Shown here one piece after another: positions 4,302-33,368 of a stretch of DNA of 64,000 nt. Within the stretch, counting starts at the first letter, position 1; each line of letters starts with the position of its first letter. Source of the DNA: Escherichia coli O127:H6 str. E2348/69 (GTDB taxonomy: Bacteria; Pseudomonadota; Gammaproteobacteria; Enterobacterales; Enterobacteriaceae); assembly GCF_000026545.1 (NCBI RefSeq), contig NC_011601.1. The stretch is one strand, 5' to 3'. The notes under the pieces were generated by a model. It was not told the origin of the DNA. It saw only the letters and a list, made by a program, of their open reading frames with translations, and did no database searches. A program made the translations under genes and the position numbers.

Positions 4302-4907
4302 TCAGGATCTGATAATATCGTTCTGTCTCAACAGATCTAATAATTGCTGTACCAAATTTGTTACTAATTGTTCACCATTGAGATGAATTTCTGCCGATTC
4401 AGGCGCTTCGTAAACGGAATCTATTCCCGTAAAGTTGCGCAGTTCACCGGCACGCGCTTTCTTATATAAACCTTTTGGATCGCGGGCTTCGCAAATCGCC
4501 AGCGGCGTATCGACAAACACTTCGATAAAGCGCCCTTCTCCTACGCGTTCGCGAACCATCTGGCGTTCGGCGCGGTGTGGCGAGATAAATGCGGTCAGCA
4601 CCACCAGTCCGGCTTCAACCATCAAATTCGCCACTTCACCGACGCGACGGATATTCTCTTTACGGTCGGCATCGCTAAAACCGAGATCGCTGCATAATCC
4701 GTGGCGAACATTGTCGCCATCCAGCAGATACGTACTGACGCCAAGTTTATGTAACGCCTCCTCCAGCGCCCCCGCGACGGTTGATTTACCGGAACCAGAG
4801 AGGCCGGTAAACCACAGCACAACACCACGATGACCGTGGTGCTGTTCGCGTTGTTGCGGAGTTACTGGGTGGCTATGCCAGACGACGTTTTCGTCATGCA
4901 GCGCCAT
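4302..4907 (-). CDS. cysC: adenylyl-sulfate kinase
   Basis: 201 aa, P-loop GLSGSGKST, same length as CysC. Confidence 0.9.
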
Positions 4908-6334
4908 TATTTATCTCCTAGCAAATCGCGCGCGCCCCAGTGCGGAAAGTGGCGGCGAACCAGAGCATTCAATTCCAGTTCGAATACACTGAATTGAGAT
5001 GGCGCAGCAGTTGCCTGGCTAACTGGCTCGTGCACCATACCGGCACCTACGGTCACATTGCTCAGGCGATCGATTAAAATCAGCCCACCGGTCACCGGAT
5101 TTTGCTGATAACGATCTAACACCAGTGGCTCGTCAAAAGTGAGATCCACCAGGCCGATGCCGTTCAGCGGCAGGTTTTCAACTTCGCGTTGGGTAAGGTT
5201 ATTGATATCAACCTGATAACGAATGCCATCAACACGAGCACGCGTCTTCTTACCGGCAATTTTGATGTCATAACTCTGGCCCGGGGAAAGCGGCTGTTCC
5301 GCCATCCATACCACATCCACCGACGCGCTCTGCACAGCCGGTAACGTTTCGTCTGCCGCCAGCAGCAGATCGCCACGGCTAATGTCGATCTCATCCGTCA
5401 GCACCAGGGTGATCGCTTCTCCGGCAAAGGCTTCTTCGCGATCGCCATCAAAAGTCACGATCCGCGCGACGTTTGATTCCACACCAGAGGGCAGCACTTT
5501 GACACGTTGCCCGACTTCCACGCGACCGGATGCCAGCGTTCCGGCGTAGCCACGAAAATCGAGATTCGGACGGTTAACGTACTGCACCGGGAAGCGCATT
5601 GGCTGAGCATCCACCACTCGCTGGATCTCCACGGTTTCCAGCACTTCCAGCAGTGTCGGACCGCTGTACCACGGCATACTTTCACTTTGCGAAGCCACGT
5701 TGTCGCCTTCCAGTGCGGAGAGCGGCACAAAGCGGATATCCAGATTACCCGGCAGCAGCCCGGCAAAAGTCAGATAATCTTCACGAATACGGGTGAACGT
5801 CTCTTCACTGTAATCCACCAGATCCATTTTGTTGATCGCCACGACCAGATGTTTGATCCCCAACAGTGTGGAGATAAAACTGTGACGACGGGTTTGATCG
5901 AGCACGCCTTTACGGGCATCGATCAGTAAGATCGCCAGTTCACATGTCGATGCGCCAGTCGCCATATTGCGGGTGTACTGCTCGTGCCCTGGGGTGTCGG
6001 CGATAATAAATTTACGCTTCTCGGTAGAGAAATAGCGGTAGGCCACATCAATAGTGATGCCCTGTTCGCGCTCAGCTTGCAGGCCGTCCACCAGCAGTGC
6101 CAGATCCAGCTTTTCGCCCTGGGTGCCGTGACGCTTACTGTCGTTATGCAGCGATGAGAGCTGATCTTCGTAGATTTGGCGGGTATCGTGCAGCAGGCGA
6201 CCAATCAGGGTACTTTTGCCGTCATCGACGCTACCACAGGTCAGAAAACGCAGCAGGCTTTTATGTTGTTGCGCAATCATCCAGGCTTCGACGCCGCCTT
6301 CATTGGCGATTTGTTGTGCAAGTGCGGTGTTCAT
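4907..6334 (-). CDS. cysN: sulfate adenylyltransferase subunit 1 (GTPase)
   Basis: 475 aa, GTP-binding motifs ([18 protein letters not shown]); stop overlaps cysC start. Confidence 0.9.
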
Positions 6335-6335
6335 C

Positions 6336-7244
6336 TTAAAAATACCCCTGACGTTTTTTCAGCTCCATAGACCCCGCCTGGTCGCGGTCAATCACGCGGC
6401 CCTGACGTTCACTGGTGGTGGAAACCAGCATCTCTTCGATGATCTCCGGCAGTGTTTGTGCATTTGACTCCACCGCACCGGTCAGCGGCCAGCAGCCCAG
6501 CGTACGGAAACGCACCATCCGTTTTTTAATCACTTCGCCCGGTTGCAGGTCGATACGGTTGTCATCAATCATCATCAACATACCGTCGCGTTCCAGAACC
6601 GGACGTTCCGCAGCGAGATACAGCGGCACAATGTCGATATTTTCCAGCCAGATGTATTGCCAGATATCCTGCTCGGTCCAGTTAGAGAGCGGGAAGACGC
6701 GGATGCTTTCGCCTTTGTTAATTTGCCCGTTGTAGTTGTGCCACAGCTCCGGGCGCTGATTTTTCGGATCCCAGCGATGGAAGCGGTCACGGAAAGAGTA
6801 GATTCGCTCTTTAGCGCGGGATTTCTCTTCGTCACGGCGCGCGCCACCGAAGGCGGCATCAAAACCGTATTTGTTCAGCGCCTGTTTCAGGCCTTCGGTT
6901 TTCATAATATCGGTATGTTTCGCGCTGCCGTGTACGAATGGATTAATCCCCATCGCCACGCCTTCCGGGTTTTTATGCACCAGCAGCTCGCAGCCGTAGG
7001 CTTTCGCCGTACGATCGCGGAACTCATACATCTCGCGGAATTTCCAGCCGGTATCGACATGCAGCAACGGGAAAGGCAGCGTACCTGGATAAAACGCCTT
7101 GCGCGCCAGATGCAGCATGACGCTGGAATCTTTACCGATAGAGTAGAGCATCACCGGATTTGAGAATTCTGCAGCCACCTCGCGAATAATGTGGATGCTT
7201 TCCGCCTCCAGTTGCCGCAGGTGGGTAAGTCGTTTTTGATCCAT
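6336..7244 (-). CDS. cysD: sulfate adenylyltransferase subunit 2
   Basis: 302 aa, PAPS-reductase-like fold ([16 protein letters not shown]...). Confidence 0.9.
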
Positions 7245-7495
7245 AACCGTTCCTTTGCAATACCGCTATTTTCTTGCCATCAGATGTTTCGACTATAGGG
7301 AGCGTAAGAGAACGAATGAAATTACCAATTAGAATGAGTAGTTCCTTAACGGAATAACGATTTGGCAAAGCTAATATCAAAAAGTGCTTAAGGCACCGGA
7401 TTTCGGGCGTTTAGGAAGATTTGAAATTGTTTTAGCGCAGCGGCAGTTTCATACTATGGCGGTAAAAAAATTTGCATGGTATTTAAGGACTCACT

Positions 7496-8533
7496 ATGTT
7501 TTCCGCATTGCGCCACCGTACCGCTGCCCTGGCGCTCGGCGTATGCTTTATTCTCCCCGTACACGCCTCGTCACCTAAACCTGGCGATTTTGCTAATACC
7601 CAGGCACGACATATTGCTACTTTCTTTCCGGGACGCATGACCGGAACTCCTGCAGAAATGTTATCTGCCGATTATATTCGCCAACAGTTTCAGCAAATGG
7701 GTTATCGCAGTGATATTCGGACATTTAATAGTCGGTATATTTATACCGCCCGCGATAATCGCAAGAGCTGGCATAACGTGACGGGAAGTACGGTGATTGC
7801 CGCTCATGAAGGCAAAGCGCCGCAGCAGATCATCATTATGGCGCATCTGGATACTTACGCCCCGCTGAGCGATGCTGACGCCGATGCCAATCTCGGCGGG
7901 CTAACGTTACAAGGAATGGATGATAACGCCGCAGGTTTAGGTGTCATGCTGGAACTGGCTGAACGCCTGAAAAATACGCCTACCGAGTATGGTATTCGAT
8001 TTGTGGCGACCAGCGGCGAAGAGGAAGGAAAATTAGGCGCTGAGAATTTACTCAAGCGGATGAGTGACACCGAAAAGAAAAATACGCTGCTGGTGATTAA
8101 TCTCGATAACTTAATTGTTGGCGATAAGCTGTATTTCAACAGTGGCGTAAAAACACCTGAAGCAGTAAGGAAATTAACGCGCGACCGGGCGCTGGCAATT
8201 GCCCGCAGCCATGGAATTGCCGCCACCACAAATCCAGGTTTGAATAAAAACTATCCGAAAGGCACCGGGTGTTGTAATGACGCAGAAATATTCGACAAAG
8301 CCGGTATTGCTGTACTTTCGGTGGAAGCGACTAACTGGAATCTTGGCAATAAGGATGGTTATCAGCAACGCGCAAAAACAGCCGCATTCCCTGCAGGAAA
8401 TAGCTGGCATGACGTAAGACTGGATAATCAACAGCATATTGATAAGGCACTTCCTGGAAGAATAGAACGCCGCTGCCGTGATGTTATGCGGATAATGCTA
8501 CCGCTGGTGAAGGAGCTGGCGAAGGCATCTTAA
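7496..8533 (+). CDS. iap: alkaline phosphatase isozyme conversion aminopeptidase
   Basis: 345 aa with signal peptide and M28 peptidase motifs; position after the cysDNC operon. Confidence 0.85.
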   Translation: MFSALRHRTAALALGVCFILPVHASSPKPGDFANTQARHIATFFPGRMTGTPAEMLSADYIRQQFQQMGYRSDIRTFNSRYIYTARDNRKSWHNVTGSTVIAAHEGKAPQQIIIMAHLDTYAPLSDADADANLGGLTLQGMDDNAAGLGVMLELAERLKNTPTEYGIRFVATSGEEEGKLGAENLLKRMSDTEKKNTLLVINLDNLIVGDKLYFNSGVKTPEAVRKLTRDRALAIARSHGIAATTNPGLNKNYPKGTGCCNDAEIFDKAGIAVLSVEATNWNLGNKDGYQQRAKTAAFPAGNSWHDVRLDNQQHIDKALPGRIERRCRDVMRIMLPLVKELAKAS

Positions 8534-8630
8534 TGGGTTTGAAATGATTACTCCCTTGCCTGCAGGAAATCAATGCCACCAGAAACAGAGTATAAAAAAG
8601 GGTGCAGGAGACCAAACCATCACAATTCAG

Positions 8631-8650
8631 TACGCGGGGTTTTACCCCGC
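8631..8650 (-). terminator. GC-rich stem-loop (cgcggggttttaccccgcg) just 3' of the hok-like ORF; candidate hok mRNA 3' terminal structure
   Basis: Perfect 7-bp stem with 5-nt loop, 8 nt downstream of the hok stop codon on the minus strand. Confidence 0.35.
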
Positions 8651-8657
8651 GTGGTGG

Positions 8658-8810
8658 CTACTTCTTCGATTCGTAAGCGAGAACTGCCTTAAACTCCATA
8701 CCACGTTCTCTGATACTCAACTCACACAACGAGTCGCCTACCATCAACGTGAATCCCAGTACTGTACAACACAGTACGATGATTGCCACAAGGGCATATT
8801 TTGTCAGCAT
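8658..8810 (-). CDS. Hok/Gef-family type I toxin (50 aa), HokE/HokA-like
   Basis: Minus-strand ATG at 8808-8810 gives [50 protein letters not shown]; single TM helix plus conserved DSLCE...AVLAYE Hok motif; below the 60-aa ORF-track cutoff. Confidence 0.7.
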
Positions 8811-8814
8811 GTCT

Positions 8815-10150
8815 GTGTAAGTTCACAGAGATATTGCAATTGCCTCCGGATAAGTAAGGGGAGATTGCACTATGCAAATGCAGCATCTGATGGTTGGCTA
8901 TCCTAAGTACTACCAAACGGCCGATTATGCGTTGAGGCTTTCAGTGATGGCTGATATAGCAACAATGAGAATGAAGGCTCTGCACTTCTGGGATAAACAC
9001 GGTATTTCTGCAGCTTCTGAAGCCTTTGGCGTGTCCTGCCGCACGCTTTACTGGTGGCGTCAGTTACTGAACAAGGAAGGACCTGAGGGGCTAATCCCGC
9101 ACAGTAAGGCACCTCTGGTGCGACGAAAAAAACACTGGCATCCCGATGTGCTGAAAGAGATTCGACGCCTCAGGACAGAGCTGCCGAACCTCGGTAAAGA
9201 GCAGATTTTTGTTCGCCTGAAGCCCTGGTGCGAACAGCGCTATCTGGCCTGTCCGAGTGTTTCCACCATCGGCAGAATGATCGCTGCCGCACATGATAAA
9301 ATGCGGATGATACCTGTGCGTCTGGGATCGCGGGGGAAGGCACTGCTTGTCAAAAAGCGGTCTGCCAAACCCCGCAGGCCAAAGCACTACCGCCCGGTAA
9401 AGACAGGTGAGCTCATTGGGATGGACGCCATTGAGCTCAGAATGGGCGAACTGCGTCGCTATGTCATCACCATGATCGACGAATGCAGCAATTACGCGCT
9501 GGCGCTGGCTGTGCCGTCACTCAACAGTGATATCGTCAATCACTTCTTCAGCCGCGCAGCCCGGTTGTTCCCGGTCGGTATCAGCCAGATAATCACAGAT
9601 AACGGAAAAGAGTTCCTGGGAAACTTCGACAAAACGCTGCAGGAAGCCGCTATCAAACACCTCTGGACCTATCCCTACACGCCAAAAATGAACGCTATCT
9701 GTGAACGTTTTAACCGGACGTTAAGAGAGCAGTTTATTGAATTTAATGAGATTTTACTCTTTGAAGATCTGGCGCTATTTAACCAGAAGCTGGCGGAATA
9801 TCTGGTGCTGTATAACAGCAAAAGACCCCACAAGGCGCTCGCACTAATGACGCCCGTGGAATATATTTTAAAAGAGAATAAAAATTGCAATATGTGGTGG
9901 ACCCATACAATGTCTTGCCTCCTTGCAAAGAAGAGACTAACATCCGAATTGCTTAGGTTCGAACGTAGGCCTCAGGTTGATAGAAATATCGCCTGGGGCT
10001 TTTGTCCATCTGGAACCTCGCGAATGCTTAACGCCAGACAGCCTCAAGCACCCAACGCCATTCTATACCTGTTAATTTTCCCTGCGATGTTCACCTTTAA
10101 ATGCCGGAATGCTGCTCGCAAAATAAAAACGCCCCATCATTTCTGACAGA
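8815..10150 (+). mobile_element. insertion sequence (boundaries approximate; terminal inverted repeats not confidently identified)
   Basis: Transposase gene in a locus that is otherwise K-12-collinear; left end must lie between the hok start (8810) and tnp start (8872). Confidence 0.4.
8872..10146 (+). CDS. DDE (rve integrase-core) transposase with N-terminal HTH; IS481-family-like single-ORF transposase; C-terminal ~90 aa may be read-through
   Basis: 424-aa ORF with HTH (GVSCRTLYWWRQ) followed by rve motifs (ITDNGKEF, NSKRPHKAL); sits where the cas genes are in K-12. Confidence 0.7.
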   Translation: MQMQHLMVGYPKYYQTADYALRLSVMADIATMRMKALHFWDKHGISAASEAFGVSCRTLYWWRQLLNKEGPEGLIPHSKAPLVRRKKHWHPDVLKEIRRLRTELPNLGKEQIFVRLKPWCEQRYLACPSVSTIGRMIAAAHDKMRMIPVRLGSRGKALLVKKRSAKPRRPKHYRPVKTGELIGMDAIELRMGELRRYVITMIDECSNYALALAVPSLNSDIVNHFFSRAARLFPVGISQIITDNGKEFLGNFDKTLQEAAIKHLWTYPYTPKMNAICERFNRTLREQFIEFNEILLFEDLALFNQKLAEYLVLYNSKRPHKALALMTPVEYILKENKNCNMWWTHTMSCLLAKKRLTSELLRFERRPQVDRNIAWGFCPSGTSRMLNARQPQAPNAILYLLIFPAMFTFKCRNAARKIKTPHHF

Positions 10151-10174
10151 GGCGTTTAATTTATCCGGCAATAT

Positions 10175-10909
10175 TTACCCTTCGTGTAATCCACATTCCC
10201 TTTTTAAGCCAAAGAAACGCGTTTCTTCTTCCGCCATGCCGGGTTCCCATTTACGGGTTGTATGGGTATCGCCCACCGATAAATATCCTTCATCCCATAA
10301 TGGGTGATATTTCAGGCCATGTTTTTGCAGGTACTGATAAATAGTTCGGTTATCCCAGTCGATAATCGGCAGCACTTTAAATACGCCACGCTGAATTGCC
10401 AGCACCGGTAAATTGGCGCGACTGCCGGATTGTTCACGGCGCAGGCCAGCAAACCAGGTTTGCGCATTCAGTTCTTTCAGCGCCCGGTTCATCGGTTCGA
10501 CTTTGTTGATGTCATTGTACTTTTCAATGCCTTCAACGCCCTGCTCCCACAGTTTGCCGTAGCGTGCTTCCTGCCAGGCGGCGCTTTCGGTAGCACGATA
10601 CACTTTCAGGTTGAGCTTGAGTTTGTCCGTTAACTCGTCAATAAAGCGGTAGGTTTCCGGGAACAGATAGCCGGTATCGGTGAGGATCACTGGAATATCC
10701 GGGCGAATCTGATTCACCAGATGCAGACTCACCGCCGCCTGAATGCCAAAGCTGGAAGAAAGTACATATTCACCGGGCAGATTATCCAGCGCCCAGGCTA
10801 CGCGGCCTTCAGCGTCCAGTTTTTCCAGTTGGGCGTTAGTTTCCGCCAGCGCCAGAATCCGGTCTACCTTTGGCAGTTCGTTCAGGGCGTTTAGATCGAG
10901 TTTGGACAT
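10175..10909 (-). CDS. cysH: phosphoadenosine phosphosulfate (PAPS) reductase
   Basis: 244 aa [27 protein letters not shown]... ending ...ECGLHEG; start taken at the internal Met of track ORF 10175..11062. Confidence 0.9.
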
Positions 10910-10930
10910 AAGTTCCTCACTGTTTGCCTT

Positions 10931-10968
10931 GCCTGATGCAACGCTTACACGTCTTATCAGGCCTACAA
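10931..10968. repeat. REP element in cysI-cysH intergenic
   Basis: gcctgatgcaacgcttacacgtcttatcaggcctacaag matches E. coli REP consensus. Confidence 0.6.
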
Positions 10969-10982
10969 GACCAGGCTGATGG

Positions 10983-12695
10983 TTAATCCCACAAATCGCG
11001 CGCCGGATCGAGCACCGGGCGAATGATGCCCGCACGCACCGTAAAGTCGCCGAAGCCTTCACCCACTTCGCGCTCTTTCGCCCAGCGCCCTATCAGTTCA
11101 TCAAGCGACGCCAGGATTTCCGACTCGGTGATGTTTTCTTTATACATCCGTGGGATACGTGTCCCAATGCGGTTGCCGCCAAGATGCAGGTTGTAGCGAC
11201 CCGGCGCTTTCCCCACCAGACCCACTTCCGCCAGCATCGCGCGACCACAACCGTTCGGGCAGCCTGTTACACGCATCACGATATGCTCATCGCTGACACC
11301 ATGTTTCGCCATTAAATTATCGATGTTGTCGATAAAAGACGGCAGGAAACGCTCCGCTTCCGCCATCGCCAGCGGGCAAGTCGGGAATGACACGCAGGCC
11401 ATTGAGTTTTCACGCTGCGGCGTGACGGCATTCATTAACCCGCTCTCTTTGGCGATCTTCTCGATCTTCGCTTTCTCGCTTTCCGGCACGCCGGCGATGA
11501 TCAGATTCTGGTTCGCCGTAATGCGGAAATCACCTTTGTGGATCTTCGCGATCTCCAGCAGGCCAGTTTTCAGCGGGCGCCCCGGATAATCAAGAATTCG
11601 ACCATTTTCGATAAACAGCGTCAGGTGCCAGTTATCATCAATGCCCTTAACCCAGCCAATACGATCGCCGCGTCCGGTAAACTCATACGGGCGAATCGGC
11701 TCGAATTTGATCCCCGCGCGACGCTCAACTTCCGCTTTAAACGTCTCAACCCCCACGCGCTCCAGCGTGTATTTGGTTTTGGCATTTTTACGATCGGTTC
11801 GGTTACCCCAGTCACGCTGAGTCGTCACGACGGCTTCTGCCACCGCCAGCGTATGCTCCAGCGGCAGATAACCAAACTCACTCGCCGTGCGGGCGTAGGT
11901 TTTCTTGTTGCCGTGCTCGATGGAAAGCCCACCGCCCACCAGCAGGTTAAAGCCCACCAGCTTGCCGTTTTCGGCGATCGCCACGAAGTTCATGTCGTTG
12001 GCGTGCAGATCGATATCGTTCTGCGGCGGGATCACTACCGTGGTTTTGAACTTACGCGGCAAATAAGTCTGACCGAGGATCGGTTCTTCATCGGTGGTGG
12101 CGACTTTTTCCTGATCGAGCCAGATCTCCGCATACGCGCGGGTACGCGGCAGCAGATGTTCAGAAATTTTCTTCGCCCATTCATATGCTTCCGCATGCAG
12201 CTGCGACTCGTAAGGGTTCGAGGTGCAGAGTACGTTACGGTTCATGTCGTTGGCGGTCGCCAGCGCATCAAGACCGACCGAGTGCAGCATCTGATGCACC
12301 GGTTTGACGTTCTTTTTCAGAATGCCGTGGAACTGGAATGTCTGGCGGTTGGTCAGGCGAATGCTGCCATAGATGGTGTTTTCACCGGCAAATTTGTCGA
12401 TCGCCTGCCACTGTTTAGTGGTAATCACCCCACCCGGCAGACGACAGCGAAGCAGCATCGCGTGACGTGGTTCCAGCTTCTGTTCAGCACGTTCGGCGCG
12501 GATGTCGCGGTCATCCTGCTGATACATGCCGTGGAAGCGGATCAACAGGAAGTTATCACCCTTAAAGCCGCCGGTCAGACCGTCATTTAAATCTTCCGCA
12601 ATGGTGCCGCGCAGGTAGTTGCTTTCAAGCTTCATGCGCTCGGCGTCTGTCAGTTTTCCTTCGACCACTAAAGGTCCTGGATGTTTTTCGCTCAT
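10983..12695 (-). CDS. cysI: sulfite reductase hemoprotein beta subunit
   Basis: 570 aa; siroheme/4Fe-4S sulfite reductase motifs; stop overlaps cysH region and start overlaps cysJ stop. Confidence 0.9.
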
Positions 12696-14494
12696 TAGTA
12701 GACATCTCGCTGATAACGGCGCTCTACGCGCAGCTCACTTAAAAATTCATCCGCCGCTTCGGTGTCCATGCCACCAAATTCGGCAATCACTTCCAGAAGT
12801 GCCTGCTCAACGTCTTTCGCCATGCGATTAGCGTCGCCGCAGACATAAATGTGGGCACCGTCATTGATCCAGCGCCACAGCTCTGCGCCCTGTTCGCGCA
12901 GTTTGTCTTGTACGTAAATTTTTTCTTTTTGATCGCGCGACCAGGCGAGATCGATGCGCGTCAGCACGCCTTCTTTGACGTAACGCTGCCATTCCACCTG
13001 GTAGAGGAAATCTTCCGTAAAGTGTGGGTTGCCAAAGAATAGCCAGTTTTTACCCGGCGCTTCGTCGGCAGCACGCTGCTGCATAAAGGCACGGAACGGC
13101 GCGATGCCGGTGCCAGGGCCAATCATGATCACCGGGGTTTCCGGATTGGTTGGCAGGCGGAAGTTGTCGTTATGTTCGATAAAGACGCGGACTTCACCCT
13201 CTTCTTCCACACGATCCGCGAGGAAGCTGGAGGCACCACCGGCACGGGCGCGGCCTTCCACGTCGCAACGCACCACACCAACGGTAACGTGCACTTCGTT
13301 CTCGACTTCCGCCTGCGAGGAGGCGATGGAATACAGGCGCGGGGTCAGCGGGCGCAGCAGATTAATCAGCGCTTCGGCATCCAGTTGCGCCGGAGAGAAA
13401 CGCACCATGTCGACAATCGGCGTCGTCGCGGCGTAATGCTGTAATTTCGCTTTATCGCCCACCAGCGGCAGCAGCGTTTCGCTGCGGGTAAGCGTGGCAT
13501 AGTTCTCAACAATGTTGGCGGTGTTAACGGTCAGTTCGAAGTGCCACTGTAGCGCTTCGTTCAGAGGCAACGTTTTGCCCTCGACGGTGACAGGTTCATC
13601 GCCTTTCAGCCACAGCAGTTCGACAAGTTCTTTCACCAGTGCCGGATCGTTCTGATACCAGACGCCCAGCGCGTCACCCGGCTGGTAACGCAGGCCAGAG
13701 TCACCTAAGTCAATTTCAATGTGACGAACGTCTTTTTCAGAGTTACGCCCGGTAATTTTCTGGTTAACAGAGAGGCTCGCCACCAGCGGCGCGTCTTTGC
13801 TATACGGGCTGGTGTGGATTTCATTTACCGTGCCAGTAGCGACGGATTGCGAAGGTGCCGCGACAGGCGCACGCGATTTAAGCGCATCAACCACGCGGGC
13901 GCGCCACTCGCTGGCAGCAGCCTGGTATTCAACATCGGCATCGACACGGTCGAGCAGGCGTTCACCGCCCAGTTCCGCCAGCTTACTGTCAAAATCTTTC
14001 CCGGACTGGCAGAAAAATTCATAAGAGCTATCGCCGAGGCTAAACACGGCAAACGCGGTGTTTTCCAGCTTTGACGCTTTTTTGGAGAACAGGAACTTAT
14101 GCAGCGCGACGGCTTCTTCCGGCGGTTCCCCTTCCCCTTGCGTTGACGTCACCACGATAAGCAGTTTTTCGCTGGCGATTTGTTTGAATTTATAGTCACC
14201 CGCGTTCACCAGCTTAACGTTCAGTTTTGCCGCTAATAAATCATCGCGTAATGCTTCAGCAACCCGGCGCGCATTGCCGGTTTGCGAGGCGGAGATAATA
14301 GTTATACCCGGCATTTCTGCGGCGGGCGCTGGCGTCGCTGCAAGCGCAGCAGGCTGCTGGTTGAGCACGCCCCAGAAATAGCCAGAAACCCAGGCAAGCA
14401 GGGTAGGAGTTAAATCGGTCGTGGCCGCCTGAAGGCGTGCCAGTTGCTCCGGGTTCAACGGAAGCAACGCGGAAGGTGGGACCTGTGTCGTCAT
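12695..14494 (-). CDS. cysJ: sulfite reductase flavoprotein alpha subunit
   Basis: 599 aa, flavodoxin plus FAD/NADPH reductase domains. Confidence 0.9.
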
Positions 14495-24490: not shown

Positions 24491-25969
24491 ATGTCGAAAA
24501 AATACATCATAGGGATTGATGGCGGAAGTCAGAGCACAAAAGTGGTGATGTACGATCTGGAAGGTAATGTGGTTTGCGAAGGCAAAGGCTTATTGCAGCC
24601 GATGCACACGCCAGATGCCGATACCGCAGAACATCCTGACGACGATTTATGGGCATCACTATGTTTTGCCAGTCACGATTTGATGAGCCAGTTTGCCGGA
24701 AATAAAGAAGATATTGTCGGCATTGGCCTGGGCTCAATCCGTTGCTGCCGTGCGTTATTGAAAGCCGATGGTACGCCAGCCGCGCCGTTGATTAGCTGGC
24801 AGGATGCACGCGTTACACGCCCTTACGAACACACTAATCCTGACGTGGCCTATGTCACCTCTTTTTCGGGTTATCTGACACATCGCTTAACCGGCGAGTT
24901 TAAAGACAATATCGCCAACTATTTTGGTCAGTGGCCGGTGGATTATAAGAGCTGGGCATGGAGCGAAAATGCCGCGGTAATGGAAAAGTTTAATATCCCC
25001 CGCCAGATGCTTTTTGACGTGCAAATGCCAGGCACTGTTCTTGGGCATATCACACCACAAGCTGCGCTGGCGACACATTTCCCGGCTGGGCTGCCGGTTG
25101 TTTGTACCACCAGTGATAAACCGGTAGAAGCTCTGGGAGCCGGGTTACTGGATGATGAAACGGCGGTAATTTCTCTTGGCACCTACATCGCGTTGATGAT
25201 GAACGGCAAAGCACTGCCGAAAGATCCGGTCGCGTACTGGCCGATTATGTCTTCTATTCCGCAAACATTGCTGTATGAAGGTTACGGTATTCGCAAAGGC
25301 ATGTGGACGGTGAGCTGGCTGCGCGACATGTTAGGCGAGTCGTTAATTCAGGATGCCAAAGCACAGGATCTTTCACCGGAAGATTTGCTCAACAAAAAAG
25401 CGTCTTGCGTGCCACCTGGTTGTAATGGGCTGATGACGGTGCTGGACTGGCTGACCAATCCGTGGGAACCGTACAAACGCGGAATTATGATCGGCTTTGA
25501 TTCCAGCATGGATTACGCATGGATATATCGTTCGATACTGGAAAGCGTGGCGCTGACGCTGAAGAACAATTACGACAATATGTGTAATGAAATGAATCAC
25601 TTTGCAAAGCATGTGATCATTACTGGCGGCGGTTCGAACAGCGATCTGTTTATGCAGATTTTTGCCGACGTGTTCAACCTTCCGGCACGCCGTAACGCCA
25701 TTAATGGTTGTGCAAGTCTGGGGGCAGCGATCAATACGGCGGTAGGTCTGGGGCTATACCCGGATTACGCAACGGCTGTCGACAAAATGGTTCGCGTGAA
25801 AGATATCTTTATGCCTGTTGAGAGCAACGCCAAACGCTACGACGCGATGAATAAAGGCATTTTCAAAGACCTAACCAAACACACTGATGTGATCCTGAAA
25901 AAATCGTATGAAGTGATGCATGGGGAATTGGGGAATGCGGATTCGATCCAGAGCTGGTCGAATGCGTAA
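24491..25969 (+). CDS. ygcE: FGGY-family carbohydrate kinase
   Basis: 492 aa, N-terminal IGIDGGSQSTKVVMYD actin-fold kinase motif. Confidence 0.8.
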   Translation: MSKKYIIGIDGGSQSTKVVMYDLEGNVVCEGKGLLQPMHTPDADTAEHPDDDLWASLCFASHDLMSQFAGNKEDIVGIGLGSIRCCRALLKADGTPAAPLISWQDARVTRPYEHTNPDVAYVTSFSGYLTHRLTGEFKDNIANYFGQWPVDYKSWAWSENAAVMEKFNIPRQMLFDVQMPGTVLGHITPQAALATHFPAGLPVVCTTSDKPVEALGAGLLDDETAVISLGTYIALMMNGKALPKDPVAYWPIMSSIPQTLLYEGYGIRKGMWTVSWLRDMLGESLIQDAKAQDLSPEDLLNKKASCVPPGCNGLMTVLDWLTNPWEPYKRGIMIGFDSSMDYAWIYRSILESVALTLKNNYDNMCNEMNHFAKHVIITGGGSNSDLFMQIFADVFNLPARRNAINGCASLGAAINTAVGLGLYPDYATAVDKMVRVKDIFMPVESNAKRYDAMNKGIFKDLTKHTDVILKKSYEVMHGELGNADSIQSWSNA

Positions 25970-26133: not shown

Positions 26134-27054
26134 ATGAGCGCAAGAGTATGGGTACTCGGTGATGCGGTTGTTGATTTATTACCCGAAAGCCAGGGGAGAC
26201 TACTACAGTGTCCTGGCGGGGCGCCTGCTAATGTTGCAGTCGGTATCGCAAGGCTGGGGGGGAAAAGTGCCTTTATTGGCAAAGTTGGCGATGATCCTTT
26301 CGGTCGCTTTATGTATCAGACACTGAGTACAGAAAATGTTGATACACGTTATATGTCTCTTGATCCTCAACAACGCACCTCAATTGTGGCTGTAGGACTT
26401 GATGAGCAAGGAGAAAGAAACTTTACCTTTATGGTACGCCCAAGTGCCGATCTTTTTTTACAACCTGATGACCTTCCTACATTTGGGCCGGGTGAATGGC
26501 TCCATCTTTGTTCCATTGCGCTCAGTGCAGAACCTTCCCGAAGTACCGCATTTCTGGCTATGGAGAAAATACGTCAGGCTGGCGGAAACATCAGTTTTGA
26601 TCCCAATATCCGCAGCGATCTCTGGCAGAGTGAAGCGCTATTAAGAAAATACCTTGATCGCGCGCTTTCGCTGGCGAATATCGCTAAATTGTCCGAAGAA
26701 GAGTTGCTATTCATCAGTGGCGAAAGCCAGGTTCAGCAAGGCGCATATTCATTAGTACAACGTTATTCGTTGACTTTATTGCTTATCACACAAGGAAAAA
26801 ATGGCGTACTTGTGTATTTTCAGGGGCAGTTTATCCACTATCCCGCCAAACCTGTTTCTGTCGTCGATACGACCGGGGCAGGAGATGCTTTTGTCGCTGG
26901 ATTACTTGCAGGTCTGGCTGATTCTGGAATACCAACAAATACCAGACAGCTTGAACGAATCATTGCACAAGCTCAGATTTGTGGTGCTCTGGCGACCACG
27001 GCTAAAGGCGCGATGACCGCCTTACCCCGACAACACGATCTCCCTTCACAATAG
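26134..27054 (+). CDS. scrK: fructokinase (PfkB family)
   Basis: 306 aa, ribokinase-family motifs (GGAPANVA, DTTGAGDAF). Confidence 0.85.
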   Translation: MSARVWVLGDAVVDLLPESQGRLLQCPGGAPANVAVGIARLGGKSAFIGKVGDDPFGRFMYQTLSTENVDTRYMSLDPQQRTSIVAVGLDEQGERNFTFMVRPSADLFLQPDDLPTFGPGEWLHLCSIALSAEPSRSTAFLAMEKIRQAGGNISFDPNIRSDLWQSEALLRKYLDRALSLANIAKLSEEELLFISGESQVQQGAYSLVQRYSLTLLLITQGKNGVLVYFQGQFIHYPAKPVSVVDTTGAGDAFVAGLLAGLADSGIPTNTRQLERIIAQAQICGALATTAKGAMTALPRQHDLPSQ

Positions 27055-27104
27055 TGATCCTGCTGTTGTATCTGTAACCCGATTTGTCGTGCCTGTCACA
27101 TTTA

Positions 27105-27178
27105 CTAAATCGGTTTAGCGAAAATAATTGCTCTGGCTAAAAAGTCAGCTTTATTATCAACACCTAAACCGGTTTAGC
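27105..27178. promoter_or_regulatory. two palindromic operators (ctaaatcggtttag and ctaaaccggtttag) in scrY promoter region
   Basis: 14-bp near-perfect and perfect palindromes 45 bp apart, same half-site (AAACCG) as the scrK operator. Confidence 0.5.
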
Positions 27179-27197
27179 ATTTTAGCAATTTTTATAA

Positions 27198-28739
<1,542 letters not shown>

Positions 28740-28799
28740 TACCAGACAGCCTCACGGATGTGAGGCTTTTACTGAAATAACAATGAATTAGAGGGTTAT

Positions 28800-30170
28800 A
28801 TGGATTTCGATAAAATCGCCCAATCGTTGCTTCCTTTATTAGGTGGTAAGGAGAACATCGCCAGTGCAGCACATTGCGCCACTCGCCTACGGCTGGTACT
28901 GGTTGACGACACACTTGCCGATCAACATGCCATTGGCCAGATTGATGGAGTGAAAGGTTGTTTTCGTAATTCAGGGCAAATGCAAATCATCTTTGGCACC
29001 GGCGTGGTTAATAAAGTCTATGCTGCCTTTATTCAGGTTGCAGGTATTAGCGAATCCAGTAAAGCAGATACCGCTCGACTCGCCGCTCAAAAACTCAATC
29101 CTTTTCAGCGAATAGCACGGCTACTTTCTAATATTTTTGTCCCCATCATTCCAGCCATTGTTGCTTCTGGTTTATTAATGGGGCTCCTGGGAATGGTGAA
29201 AACATATGGCTGGGTGAATGCCGATAATGCGATTTATATCCTGCTGGATATGTGCAGTTCAGCCGCATTTATTATTCTCCCCATCCTTATTGGCTTTACT
29301 GCTGCTCGTGAATTTGGTGGAAATCCTTATCTTGGCGCGACATTAGGAGGGATTCTGACTCACCCGGCACTCACAAATGCCTGGGGCGTTGCTGCGGGAT
29401 TTCAGACAATGAACTTCTTCGGTTTTGAAATCGCCATGATTGGCTATCAGGGAACGGTTTTCCCCGTGCTTCTGGCAGTATGGTTTATGAGCATAGTGGA
29501 AAAACAGTTACGCAGGTTTATCCCTGATGCTCTGGATCTCATTCTGACGCCATTTCTGACTGTCGTCATTTCTGGCTTTATCGCTCTTTTGATTATTGGT
29601 CCGGCAGGACGAGCGTTAGGTGACGGTATCTCTTTCGTTCTCAGCACGCTGATTGCACACGCAGGCTGGTTAGCAGGGTTGTTATTCGGCGGGCTATATT
29701 CAGCGATTGTTATTACGGGTATTCATCATAGCTTCCACGCAATTGAAGCAGGACTTTTAGGTAACCCTGCAATCGGTGTTAATTTCCTGCTGCCTATTTG
29801 GGCAATGGCAAACGTTGCGCAAGGAGGTGCATGTCTGGCGGTATGGTTTAAAACCAAAGATACAAAAATTAAAGCAATCACCCTACCCTCGGCCTTTTCC
29901 GCAATGTTAGGGATTACTGAAGCCGCTATTTTTGGTATCAACCTTCGTTTTGTTAAACCTTTTATTGCGGCCTTAATTGGTGGCGCTGCCGGCGGTGCCT
30001 GGGTTGTCTCTGTTCACGTTTATATGACTGCCGTTGGTCTGACCGCAATACCCGGCATGGCAATCGTTCAGCCAACATCGTTGGTTAATTATATTATTGG
30101 AATGGTGATTGCTTTCGCTGTCGCTTTTAGCCTCTCTTTATTACTCAAATACAAAACGGACGAGGAGTAA
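28800..30170 (+). CDS. scrA: PTS sucrose-specific EIIBC
   Basis: 456 aa, EIIB Cys motif (AAHCATRLR) plus EIIC membrane domain. Confidence 0.85.
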   Translation: MDFDKIAQSLLPLLGGKENIASAAHCATRLRLVLVDDTLADQHAIGQIDGVKGCFRNSGQMQIIFGTGVVNKVYAAFIQVAGISESSKADTARLAAQKLNPFQRIARLLSNIFVPIIPAIVASGLLMGLLGMVKTYGWVNADNAIYILLDMCSSAAFIILPILIGFTAAREFGGNPYLGATLGGILTHPALTNAWGVAAGFQTMNFFGFEIAMIGYQGTVFPVLLAVWFMSIVEKQLRRFIPDALDLILTPFLTVVISGFIALLIIGPAGRALGDGISFVLSTLIAHAGWLAGLLFGGLYSAIVITGIHHSFHAIEAGLLGNPAIGVNFLLPIWAMANVAQGGACLAVWFKTKDTKIKAITLPSAFSAMLGITEAAIFGINLRFVKPFIAALIGGAAGGAWVVSVHVYMTAVGLTAIPGMAIVQPTSLVNYIIGMVIAFAVAFSLSLLLKYKTDEE

Positions 30171-31579
30171 TGTCGATGCCTTCACAAATGCCCGCGATTT
30201 TACAGGCAGTGATGAAAGGTCAGTCCAAAGCACTGGCAGATGCCCACTATCCTTGTTGGCATCTCGCTCCAGTCACCGGACTAATGAACGATCCAAATGG
30301 CTTTTGTTGGTCTGGAGGCCGCTATCATCTGTTTTATCAATGGAATCCACTGGCTTGTGATCATAAGTACAAATGTTGGGGGCACTGGAGTTCGACGGAT
30401 TTATTGCACTGGCAGCATGAACCATTAGCGCTAATGCCCGATAAAGAGTACGACCGTAATGGTTGTTACTCAGGAAGCGCGGTTAATAATCAGGGCGTTC
30501 TCACACTTTGCTATACCGGTAATGTTAAGTTTGATGATGGCAGCAGAACGGCATGGCAATGCCTGGCCACCGAAAATAACCAGGGCGGGTTTGATAAACT
30601 AGGCCCTGTCATACCGTTACCTGATGGTTACACCGGACATGTTCGTGATCCAAAAGTCTGGAAGCACAACAGCCAATGGTACATGGTGCTTGGCGCGCAA
30701 GATAAAGAGAAACGGGGGAAAGTGCTGCTGTATTCCTCTGTCGATCTCTATACCTGGTCTTTTCATGGAGAAATTGCTGGTAACGGTCTGAATGAAATAG
30801 ATAACGCAGGATACATGTGGGAATGTCCTGATCTTTTCGCCCTTGATGGTGAATACATTCTCCTCTGTTGCCCCCAGGGAATGGTGCGCGAACATGAGCG
30901 CTATCTGAATACTTATCCCTGCGCCTGGCTACATGGACAGTTTGATTACGAGACAGGCAAATTTACGCATGGCGCTTTCTCAGAGCTGGATGCGGGATTT
31001 GAATTCTATGCACCACAGACGATGGAAGCCCCGGACGGGCGACGATTGCTGGTCGGCTGGATGGGGGTTCCTGATGGCGAAGAGATGTTGCAGCCAACCA
31101 GAAAGCATCATTGGCAGCATCAAATGACCTGTTTTCGCGAACTCTCATTCCAGAAGGGAAAATTGTTTCAGATGCCAATCAGGGAACTCGCGCAACTGCG
31201 TGAAGCTGAACACTTCTGGCAAGGAAAAGCGGATCATGCGCCGCATGTCGAAATTGAACGCCTGGAAATGGACATCATTCCGTCGGGTGAGCTGTATCTG
31301 AATTTTGGCAATGCGCTGGCACTGCATCTTAATGACGATGGTATTCAACTACAGAGGAGAAGCCTTGCAGGGCAAGAGAAACTAACTCGTTACTGGCGAG
31401 GAAGCGTAACGTCACTGAAGATTCTCTGTGACAGTTCCAGCGTAGAGATATTCATCAATAATGGTGAAGGTGTAATGAGTAATCGTTATTTTCCCCATCA
31501 TCCAGCTTCGCTGATATTACAGGGTGAGTCTGACGTCACGTTACGCTACTGGTCGCTACGCGCCTGCATGGTAGAATGA
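30170..31579 (+). CDS. scrB: sucrose-6-phosphate hydrolase (GH32)
   Basis: 469 aa, GH32 motifs (NDPNG, RDP, EC); start overlaps scrA stop. Confidence 0.85.
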
Positions 31580-31604
31580 GGGTTTTGAATTACGGATCCT
31601 CGTC

Positions 31605-32612
31605 GTGAGAAAAACCAAACGCGTTACTATTAAAGACATTGCTGAACTGGCGGGAGTGTCGAAAGCAACCGCCAGTCTGGTTCTCAATGGTCGTGGCAAA
31701 GAGTTACGTGTTGCGCAGGAAACGCGTGAGCGTGTGCTGAGTATTGCCCAACAGCAGCATTATCAGCCCAGCATTCATGCCCGCTCATTACGGGACAACC
31801 GCAGTCATACCATTGGTCTCGTCGTTCCTGAAATCACTAACTACGGATTTGCAGTATTTTCCCATGAACTGGAAACATTGTGTCGGGAAGCGGGCGTCCA
31901 GCTCCTCATATCCTGTACTGATGAAAATCCTTCACAGGAAACAATGGTGGTGAACAATATGATTGCCCGCCAGGTTGATGGGTTAATCGTCGCATCCAGT
32001 ATGCTGCATGATAATGACTATCAAAAACTTAGCGAGCAATTACCTGTTGTGTTGTTCGATCGCCACATGAACGGCAGTACATTGCCATTGGTCATTACTG
32101 ACTCTGTTTCTCCCACCGCCGCTCTGGTGGCAGATATTGCACGGAGTCACCCGGATGAATTCTATTTTCTGGGCGGACAACCCCGTTTGTCACCGACTCG
32201 CGATCGACTGGAAGGATTTACACAAGGCTTGCAGCAAGCCGGAGTAACGCTACAACCTGAATGGATTATTCACGGTAATTATCATCCGAGCTCAGGCTAT
32301 GAAATGTTTGCCGCGCTATGCGCTCGTTTAGGACGTCCCCCTAAAGCCTTATTCACTGCCGCTTGTGGATTACTGGAAGGCGTTCTGCGCTATATGAGCC
32401 AATATAATTTACTCGACAGTAAAATACACCTGGCGAGTTTTGATGATCATTACTTGTATGATTCACTTTCGGTAAGAATCGACACAATACAACAGGATAA
32501 TCGCCAACTTGCTTTTCACTGCTTTGAACTTATTTCGCAACTGATTGAAGGTGAAACGCCATCCCCATTACAGCGTTATCTTCCTGCCAGTCTACAAAAA
32601 CGCTACCGATAA
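31605..32612 (+). CDS. scrR: LacI-family sucrose operon repressor (GTG start)
   Basis: 335 aa, N-terminal [26 protein letters not shown]. Confidence 0.85.
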
Positions 32613-32696: not shown

Positions 32697-33368
32697 TCAG
32701 GCAATATTCAAATATTTATGTGTCTGCATCGACAAACGCCAGTTGCGCGCAATGCAGGTATCGATACATAAACGCGTAGCATCTTCCTTCTGGCTAATTG
32801 GCTGAAGTGCAATGACTCGCGGTTTATCATCGGTCAGCGTCGCAAGCAATTCATCCAGTGCTTCGATATCACGTACGCGTCCAACTGGGTGTTTGATTTC
32901 GTTAGCTCGCTCCAGGGCTTGCGACAATACTTCATAGCCGCCGCGCATGTTCAGCTTTGGCGATACGGTAACCCAGGTATTCGGTGTGCAGCGTACCTCA
33001 TGAGTACCACTGGTTTCGATCTGGCAGCTAAAACCGTTCTTTTCGAGCAGGTCAGTCAGTGGCAGCAAATCATGAATGCAAGGCTCACCACCCGTAATCA
33101 CCACGTGACGCGCGGTGTATCCCTGACGGCCAATGACAGCCAGCAAATCTTCACTGCTCGCCGCCCCCCACTTATCACTCTCTTTGGTCTTCGCCAGAAT
33201 GCTGAAAAGGGAGACTTCCCGATCCTCAAGCTTTTCCCAGGTGTGTTTGGTGTCGCACCAGGCACAGCCAACCGGACATCCCTGTAAACGAATAAAAATG
33301 GCGGGGACGCCGGTAAAGTAACCCTCACCTTGCAGGGTCTGGAACATCTCGTTAATCGGGTACTGCAT
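32697..33368 (-). CDS. queE: 7-carboxy-7-deazaguanine synthase (radical SAM)
   Basis: 223 aa with CxxxCxxC-type cluster (GCPVGCAWCDT). Confidence 0.9.
   Translation of the reverse strand: MQYPINEMFQTLQGEGYFTGVPAIFIRLQGCPVGCAWCDTKHTWEKLEDREVSLFSILAKTKESDKWGAASSEDLLAVIGRQGYTARHVVITGGEPCIHDLLPLTDLLEKNGFSCQIETSGTHEVRCTPNTWVTVSPKLNMRGGYEVLSQALERANEIKHPVGRVRDIEALDELLATLTDDKPRVIALQPISQKEDATRLCIDTCIARNWRLSMQTHKYLNIA

Follow-up and report, generated by a model that had tools for sequence, protein, structure and literature searches.

A cas-less iap-cysH interval in Escherichia coli E2348/69 with a resident hokX/sokX locus and a probable IS481-family insertion

The EPEC strain E2348/69 (O127:H6) of Escherichia coli has a short interval between iap and cysH that holds a toxin gene and a transposase gene, which raises the question of what became of type I-E CRISPR-Cas at this locus and whether either gene took its place. 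The window analyzed here is a 64,000-nucleotide stretch of the chromosome. Within it, the iap stop (8533) and the end of cysH (10175) are separated by 1,641 bp (8534-10174) according to the ORF calls, in agreement with the 1.64 kb of the original prediction; the corresponding gap in K-12 measures 9,959 bp and not the ~12 kb given in the original prediction. The interval contains two substantial ORFs, identified from the ORF list and by Pfam as the Hok-family ORF (HOK_GEF) and the rve-type transposase ORF (rve, rve_3 and HTH) that had been predicted. RefSeq lists in order iap, a 'Hok/Gef family protein', an 'integrase core domain-containing protein' flagged as partial, and cysH. The interval is 100% identical in three E2348/69 assemblies, and positions 1-49957 of the window are the exact reverse complement of NZ_CP059840.2 1027100-1077056. 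The flanking gene order had been described as identical to that of K-12, which holds near the locus; at ygcE-queE, the second I-E array site, a sucrose-utilisation cluster stands in place of CRISPR-II in this window. The features of the interval and its borders are collected in Table 1.

Table 1. Features of the iap-cysH interval and its borders, in window positions.
Feature	Position	Strand	Basis
iap, left border gene, alkaline phosphatase isozyme conversion aminopeptidase	7496-8533	+	ORF; Pfam Peptidase_M28; RefSeq E2348/69
DNA 3' of iap common to cas-positive strains, 11 bp	8534-8544	.	blastn vs O103:H2 and K-12
Junction filler, 48 bp, specific to cas-less allele	8545-8592	.	blastn; local alignment
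hokX mRNA 3' UTR	8593-8657	-	blastn; fold of IS-free allele
hokX CDS, 50 aa Hok-family toxin, intact ORF	8658-8810	-	Pfam HOK_GEF; WP_000956458.1
Target-site duplication ATGTC, left copy; the ATG serves as start codon of hok (- strand)	8809-8813	.	empty-site reconstruction
IS481-family IS, 1,096 bp	8814-9909	+	boundaries by empty-site reconstruction; NCBIfam
Transposase ORF, 424 aa	8872-10146	+	ORF list; Pfam HTH, rve, rve_3
Target-site duplication ATGTC, right copy	9910-9914	.	empty-site reconstruction
hokX mRNA leader, 5' end GGGUGCUUGAGG, Sok target region	9910-10053	-	Rfam RF01794
sokX antisense RNA gene	9951-10009	+	homology to K-12 b4701 (K-12 locus 13354-13412)
Terminator-like hairpin 3' of cysH	10132-10151	-	sequence scan
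cysH, right border gene, PAPS reductase	10175-10909	-	ORF; Pfam PAPS_reduct; RefSeq

The proposed absence of type I-E CRISPR-Cas between iap and cysH was borne out by repeat, direct-repeat, tblastn and blastn-short searches. Across the whole 64-kb window, the K-12 I-E repeat found no match with up to three mismatches allowed, and no families of direct repeats of at least 22 nt spaced within 120 nt were present. Sixteen Cas proteins, eight from each of the two E. coli I-E variants ('E1' of O103:H2 and 'E2' of K-12), gave only chance tblastn hits to the window (E of 0.019 or higher, at most 25 bits), none of them in 8534-10174. Array and leader DNA of both variants had no match within the interval by blastn-short, and a Pfam search of the gap returned only Hok and rve-type domains and no cas gene. 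What makes up a type I-E locus, namely cas3, casA-E, cas1 and cas2 together with ~29-bp repeats, ~32-bp spacers and a leader, is not found in the interval; neither a cas3 or cas1 fragment nor a repeat array, which the prediction had named as evidence against itself, turned up there. The hairpin CGCGGGG...CCCCGCG at 8634-8652 was considered as a degenerate CRISPR repeat and rejected, as cas-positive strains have it too and it forms the stem-loop at the end of the hok mRNA.

The extent of the missing DNA could be mapped, as had been proposed, by comparison with K-12 and O103:H2. On the left, blastn homology to both strains spans 8300-8544, comprising the end of iap and a further 11 bp, which places the left deletion endpoint after 8544. 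On the right, homology to the O103:H2 locus resumes at 8593 and continues to 10400 with 98.4% identity, starting 127 bp upstream of cas3. Measured against the E1 arrangement, 9,571 bp (O103:H2 locus 4430-14000) are absent from the window: the degenerate terminal repeat, the array, the leader, the genes from cas2 to cas3 and the 127 bp preceding cas3. The right endpoint falls at the 3' terminus of the hok transcript. Between the two blocks is a 48-bp filler, for which local alignment to both cas-positive loci (9.6 kb) on both strands gave chance-level matches only. In a blastn search of complete E. coli genomes, the filler was found once and at full length in 1,127 of 5,426, and nowhere else, and it therefore represents one widespread allele; the entire junction is present in 1,129 genomes, O25:H4 strains among them.

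Since the deletion reaches exactly as far as this terminus and no further, hokX is a spared neighbour. The original prediction had described the toxin gene as left at the scar, a description that does not survive comparison with strains that have cas genes. The cas-positive O103:H2 strain PV16-126 has the arrangement iap - CRISPR - cas2...cas3 - Hok/Gef - 'integrase core' ORF - cysH, and its Hok protein (WP_000956458.1) is identical to that of the window. Escherichia albertii is an outgroup of E. coli, and in its strain NBRC 107761, where homology to the window begins at 8595, an E1-type cas3 (82.5% identical) directly adjoins the hokX 3' region. In K-12, sokX alone lies between cas3 and cysH, and homology to the window begins at the right end of the IS. 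Almendros et al. 2014 (mBio 5:e00767-13; PMC3903273) count a hok sok system among the components of this locus, CRISPR-I, in all strains but those with cas-E2. A 2025 survey of 237 urinary (uropathogenic) isolates reports hok/sokX adjoining cysH in 90% of them, with cas present or not (PMC12736100). As judged from these sequence comparisons, hokX/sokX is the normal resident of the locus, spared by the deletion, rather than a scar.

The same comparisons bear on the possibility that a toxin and a transposase replaced the cas genes or mark their scar, for example through an IS-mediated replacement carrying an addiction module. Both ORFs are the sole coding features of the gap, and IS elements are implicated in other rearrangements of the CRISPR-I locus in the accessible text of PMC3903273; nevertheless, O103:H2 has this hok and this IS next to a cas operon that is intact, hokX adjoins cas3 in E. 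albertii, and the junction (8545-8592) is 220 bp from the IS and without any IS end. The distribution among genomes points the same way. More than 1,000 genomes have the cas-less junction, while the interval with the IS occurs in only 35 of 5,426 complete genomes; of those listed, about 12 show the cas-less junction, and cas is present in at least 18. Replacement by toxin and transposase is considered extremely improbable. Of the earlier view that this locus exemplifies a known replacement of I-E in some lineages, the lineage-specific absence is indeed known, but the casting of toxin and transposase as substitutes for cas is not sustained. On the evidence of sequence, the insertion of the IS is a rare event, separate from and later than the cas deletion.

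Turning to the toxin locus itself, the Hok ORF matches Pfam HOK_GEF (PF01848) with 39.1 bits against a cut-off of 22, and also matches the NCBIfam HokA and Hok models, below their cut-offs. The full Rfam model RF01794 (sok) aligns to 9904-10053 on the minus strand with 104.6 bits (E = 3.4e-24; gathering score 59); the model represents the hok leader up to the AUG, and the last positions of the match extend into the IS end. In the 3' UTR are the terminal hairpin CGCGGGG-TTTTA-CCCCGCG and a 3' element, GGUCUCCUGCACCC, that is predicted to pair with the mRNA 5' end. End-to-end pairing of the mRNA is typical of hok mRNAs. An IS-free allele of the locus, from FDAARGOS_536, folds as a 355-nt RNA (z = -4.28 vs shuffles) in which 5' GGGUGC is predicted to pair with 3' GCACCC (window ~8593-8610), whereas this predicted 5'-3' (tac/fbi) pairing is impossible within one transcript of the window allele. 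Leader, Shine-Dalgarno and toxin ORF are contiguous in the FDAARGOS_536 allele and not in the window allele, where the 1,096-bp IS lies between them. The locus thus resembles known hok/sok systems in its Hok-family ORF, RF01794 leader, antisense sokX and, for the IS-free allele, predicted 5'-3' pairing, and differs from them in the splitting of leader and CDS by the IS and in the frame at the mok position, which has an in-frame stop ~25 nt before the hok ATG; an upstream 36-codon ORF ends there.

The element that splits hokX was delimited by reconstruction of the empty site. Removal of the IS with one copy of ATGTC (8814-9914) yields the IS-free B2 allele of FDAARGOS_536, with seven small differences over 540 bp. 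The IS has TGT...ACA ends, TGTGTAAG... and ...CCCATACA, with subterminal perfect 11-nt inverted repeats at 8831-8841 and 9883-9893 and otherwise imperfect inverted repeats. Its transposase scores 221.6 bits with NCBIfam NF033577 (transpos_IS481), whose cut-off is 224, and the next family, IS3, follows at 98 bits; Pfam adds a weak LZ_Tnp_IS481 match. An identical IS copy elsewhere carries the PGAP name 'IS481 family transposase', and relatives ~75% identical in nucleotide sequence are annotated as ISKpn28 family. Within the IS, the transposase frame meets no stop codon; it consists of 346 IS-encoded codons plus 78 from the hokX leader. This run of 78 codons into flanking DNA accounts for the partial flag given by PGAP. 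At hokD, the product of the same IS is 363 aa, with 17 extra codons, also ends in flank DNA and is called intact.

Members of the IS481 family, among which ISKpn28 is the nearest named relative, share with this element a length of ~1.1 kb, one DDE (rve) transposase with an N-terminal HTH, and short duplications, and the TGT...ACA ends of ISKpn28-type copies are nearly identical to its own. It differs in being ~75% identical to ISKpn28-type copies at the nucleotide level, in having no stop in its transposase frame, and in its marked association with hok and ldr translation-start regions. Copies of the IS were located at 1,927 places in 1,419 genomes, with up to 38 per genome, and 100% identical copies are found at hokX, hokD and ldr. 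When genome contigs were scanned with the transposase, the matches were limited to an E. albertii draft, which is fragmented, and to distant homologues in Steroidobacteraceae and Nonomuraea. The IS is apparently intact and recently active.

At hokX, the empty site on the hok-sense strand reads AAGGAGGCAAGACATGCTG, which puts the start codon on one side of the IS and the Shine-Dalgarno on the other. The hok CDS is consequently parted from its promoter, 5' end, Sok target region and Shine-Dalgarno, and sokX is on the far side as well; the Shine-Dalgarno AGGAGG, at 9917-9922 within the leader, is now 1.1 kb from the CDS. The sequence that now precedes the hok ORF, …CTTACACAGACATG, is without a Shine-Dalgarno. 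A consensus scan detected no outward promoter at the IS end and no Shine-Dalgarno before the hok ATG, although this is a weak scan that also missed the native hok/sok promoters. From this anatomy, hok is probably silent but unmutated, being neither transcribed from its own promoter nor translated. Several chromosomal hok loci of K-12 are reportedly inactivated by nearby IS elements, an observation attributed to Pedersen and Gerdes in 1999.

The age of the insertion can be gauged from the divergence between E2348/69 and O103:H2, a B2 and a B1 strain. Within the IS, the two strains have no differences over 1,096 nt, whereas the surrounding DNA differs by 1.4% in hok, 6.8% in the leader-to-cysH spacer, 3.4% in cysH and 2.9% in iap. 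This disparity most probably reflects independent, recent hits at the same position, in the same orientation and with the same duplication, although gene conversion among copies could in principle have removed the differences instead. One old insertion that B2 and B1 strains inherited or acquired by recombination would readily explain why E2348/69, O103:H2 and E. albertii share the position, orientation and 5-bp duplication of the IS, and it would suit the K-12 breakpoint, whose location exactly at the right end of the IS shows a long history of the insertion site here. At the 3% divergence of the adjoining genes, however, ~30 differences would be expected in the IS; the insertion is also rare and scattered (35/5,426 genomes), and other toxin genes have identical copies at equivalent positions. 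One old event is therefore judged unlikely, and recurrent insertion at the same site is the preferred explanation. The K-12 homology breakpoint itself (…ATACA-C-ATGTCTTGCC…) fits the proposal in the accessible text of PMC3903273 that ISu-bearing intermediates preceded the cas-E2 swap.

Taken together, the observations are very probably explained by three layers: an ancestral locus with both cas-E1 and hokX/sokX, a ~9.6-kb deletion, and a later, independent IS insertion that would have silenced hok. The ancestral order would have been iap - CRISPR2.1 - cas-E1 operon - hokX/sokX - cysH. In an ancestor of the lineage, one deletion of ~9.6 kb would have removed the array, the leader, all genes from cas2 to cas3 and the promoter region of cas3. 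Beginning 11 bp beyond iap and ending where the hokX transcript has its 3' terminus, it would have left the 48-bp filler and spared hokX/sokX. Later and independently, the 1,096-bp IS481-family IS would have entered hokX, generating an ATGTC duplication that overlaps the hok start codon. The insertion would have taken hok off its own promoter and Shine-Dalgarno and made it silent, while the leader, sokX and an apparently intact IS would stay in place.

The opposite polarity would make the short iap-hokX junction the ancestral state of a lineage that was always without cas, with CRISPR-cas inserted at this spot in the others. It finds some accord with the want of repeat, leader or cas remnants in the interval and with the filler, which is confined to cas-less genomes and might represent original sequence that was displaced in other lineages. 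The E1-type cas3 of E. albertii nevertheless abuts hokX at the same boundary, and in Klebsiella pneumoniae the canonical I-E system is likewise in the cysH-iap region (PMC7301723). Because of these two placements, the cas-less state is best read as secondary loss. The parsimony scenario given in PMC3903273 also puts the cas-E1 arrangement A as the oldest and derives the cas-less forms by deletion and then ISu insertion. An ancestral absence of cas is regarded as very unlikely.

Much of this arrangement has been described before. Almendros et al. (PMC3903273) define arrangements A, B and C of the CRISPR-I locus together with an 'uncharacterized ISu', to which the IS of the window corresponds and whose insertion site is ascribed to GC-richness. 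By our reading of that text, rather than from a per-strain entry, the E2348/69 interval is 'arrangement C', and the window shows no structural difference from arrangements B/C as described there. Since the arrangement is published, the finding as originally given was already known. The detail added here at the level of bases, namely the deletion endpoints, filler, IS family, ends, duplication and start-codon position, was not found in the accessible text of PMC3903273. This base-level anatomy and the association of the IS with toxin genes are the only additions to the known, published cas-less iap-cysH arrangement.

The latter association extends beyond hokX. Two identical copies of the IS are each found 13 nt before a toxin gene, one of them a prophage hokD (duplication TCTCC) and the other an ldr gene (duplication CTGTG). 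Copies of the IS and its ISKpn28-like relatives also abut hokD, three plasmid-type hok genes (MKLPRN…/MKLPGN…), a HokA-like gene (MPQKYLL…) and a divergent Hok (MSQKSLTA…). In those loci, the distance from the start codon is 3-15 nt and the left IS end always faces the toxin ORF. These further toxin-abutting copies were drawn from 80 metagenome loci and 27 viral contigs, and Pfam confirmed HOK_GEF or Ldr_toxin for the toxin ORFs abutted by the IS. A 5-bp duplication was confirmed at 14 site entries, which correspond to 13 distinct sites because the window and O103:H2 share the hokX position; about nine of the 13 are toxin start regions. The base following the duplication is T in all 14 entries and the sequence is TTG or TTGC in 12 of them; TTGC also occurs within the inverted-repeat core of the IS, ATATTGCAAT. 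Non-toxin sites occur as well, for example the phage sites GAGYA|TTGAAAC. Many IS copies have chimeric flanks, which indicates recombination between copies.

Targeting by a sequence motif alone was considered and set aside, given that NNNNC|TTG(C) is too short to account for the concentration at toxin genes and that the phage sites GAGYA|TTGAAAC represent other preferred targets. A wider proposal, to which an even chance of being right may be given, is that ISu and its ISKpn28-like relatives are target-selective elements. They would insert in one orientation at a motif of five bp, subsequently duplicated, followed by TTG(C), the complement of GCAAGGAG, which is conserved around the hok Shine-Dalgarno; the starts of hokX, hokD, plasmid and prophage hok, and ldr would be their targets, and the toxins would be disarmed. 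In the same proposal, the hokX copy would act as a recombination handle for the exchange or loss of I-E cas, a role suggested by the K-12 breakpoint at this very IS end. The data fit targeting as well as selection for toxin inactivation. The association between this IS and toxin genes seems unreported: a literature search found no description of IS481-family/ISKpn28-like targeting of hok/ldr starts, and a recent survey of Hok mentions no more than a high frequency of IS-related genes in the vicinity of some hok loci.

For E2348/69, the main value of these results lies in annotation. The hok gene here is an IS-split, probably silent hokX, and the transposase 'pseudogene' is likely an intact IS481-family element. 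That B2-type E. coli such as E2348/69 are without I-E at iap-cysH is a published polymorphism found again, and hok/sok next to cysH is the constant neighbour. The association of the IS with toxin genes could matter more than the cas-less locus itself. If the IS does home to the starts of type I toxin genes, it would offer a natural way to disarm addiction modules and would explain the frequent association of chromosomal hok loci with IS elements. Such homing would also provide a mechanistic basis for the role in CRISPR-I remodelling that PMC3903273 assigns to ISu.

The start codons of hokX, hokD, ldr and several plasmid and prophage hok paralogues each have, 3-15 nt upstream, a copy of the IS481-family element found in the window or of its ISKpn28-like relatives. 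At the loci listed in the table, the copies lie upstream of hok or ldr starts with the toxin ORF always on the side of the left IS end, and the target consists of the 5-bp duplication followed by TTG(C). The transposase frame (window 8872-10146) has no stop codon within the element, and its C-terminus is instead encoded by the flank at the insertion site, which adds 78 codons in the window and 17 at hokD. Since the C-terminus thus comes from differing flanks, PGAP annotates the window transposase as a pseudogene while calling an identical copy intact.

Insertion sequence copies at toxin gene starts and genes bordering the CRISPR-II site (L numbers denote compared loci or contigs)
Feature	Location	Remark
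IS copy	window 8814-9909	at toxin start
IS copy	L005 1501-2596	at toxin start
IS copy	L008 1501-2596	at toxin start
IS or ISKpn28-like copies	L027, L028, L029, L056, L063, L088; L107-L110	further loci, at toxin starts
ygcE	window 24491-25969	border of CRISPR-II site
queE	window 32697-33368	border of CRISPR-II site

In plasmid R1, mok occupies the frame overlapping hok; in hokX this frame meets an in-frame stop approximately 25 nt ahead of the hok ATG, as read in the IS-free B2 allele (L004 2703-2930, minus strand; corresponding to window 8722-8810 plus 9915-10049). Any mok-like ORF of hokX therefore ends upstream of hok, without overlap. In E. albertii NBRC 107761, hokX adjoins cas3 (L018 874-2560 and L011) and carries two insertions, an IS4-family element in the 3' UTR and the IS481-family element at the start codon. 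A hokD-like gene of the same genome is flanked on both sides by copies of the IS481-family element.

At CRISPR-II, the second I-E array site (ygcE-ygcF/queE), repeats are absent from window 26134-32612. In their place is a sucrose-utilisation cluster encoding a kinase, a porin, PTS IIBC, sucrose-6-phosphate hydrolase and a LacI-family regulator, in agreement with 'region C' of PMC12736100.

Similarity between K-12 (L003 13307-13317) and the window (9905-9914) starts exactly at the right IS end (ATACA-C-ATGTC), suggesting that the K-12 hok CDS was lost in an event using an IS copy at the same site as that in the window. Between iss and iroB, many ColV-type plasmids carry a fixed, degraded copy of the IS with ~93% identity (L007 and the L038 cluster); an ldr leader sequence forms its right flank in the L038 variant, a hint that the plasmid copy derives from an ldr insertion. 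On metagenome contigs L059, L070, L074 and L084, ISKpn28-like copies have left and right flanks from different hok loci and no target duplication, which implies that elements residing at separate hok loci recombined with each other.
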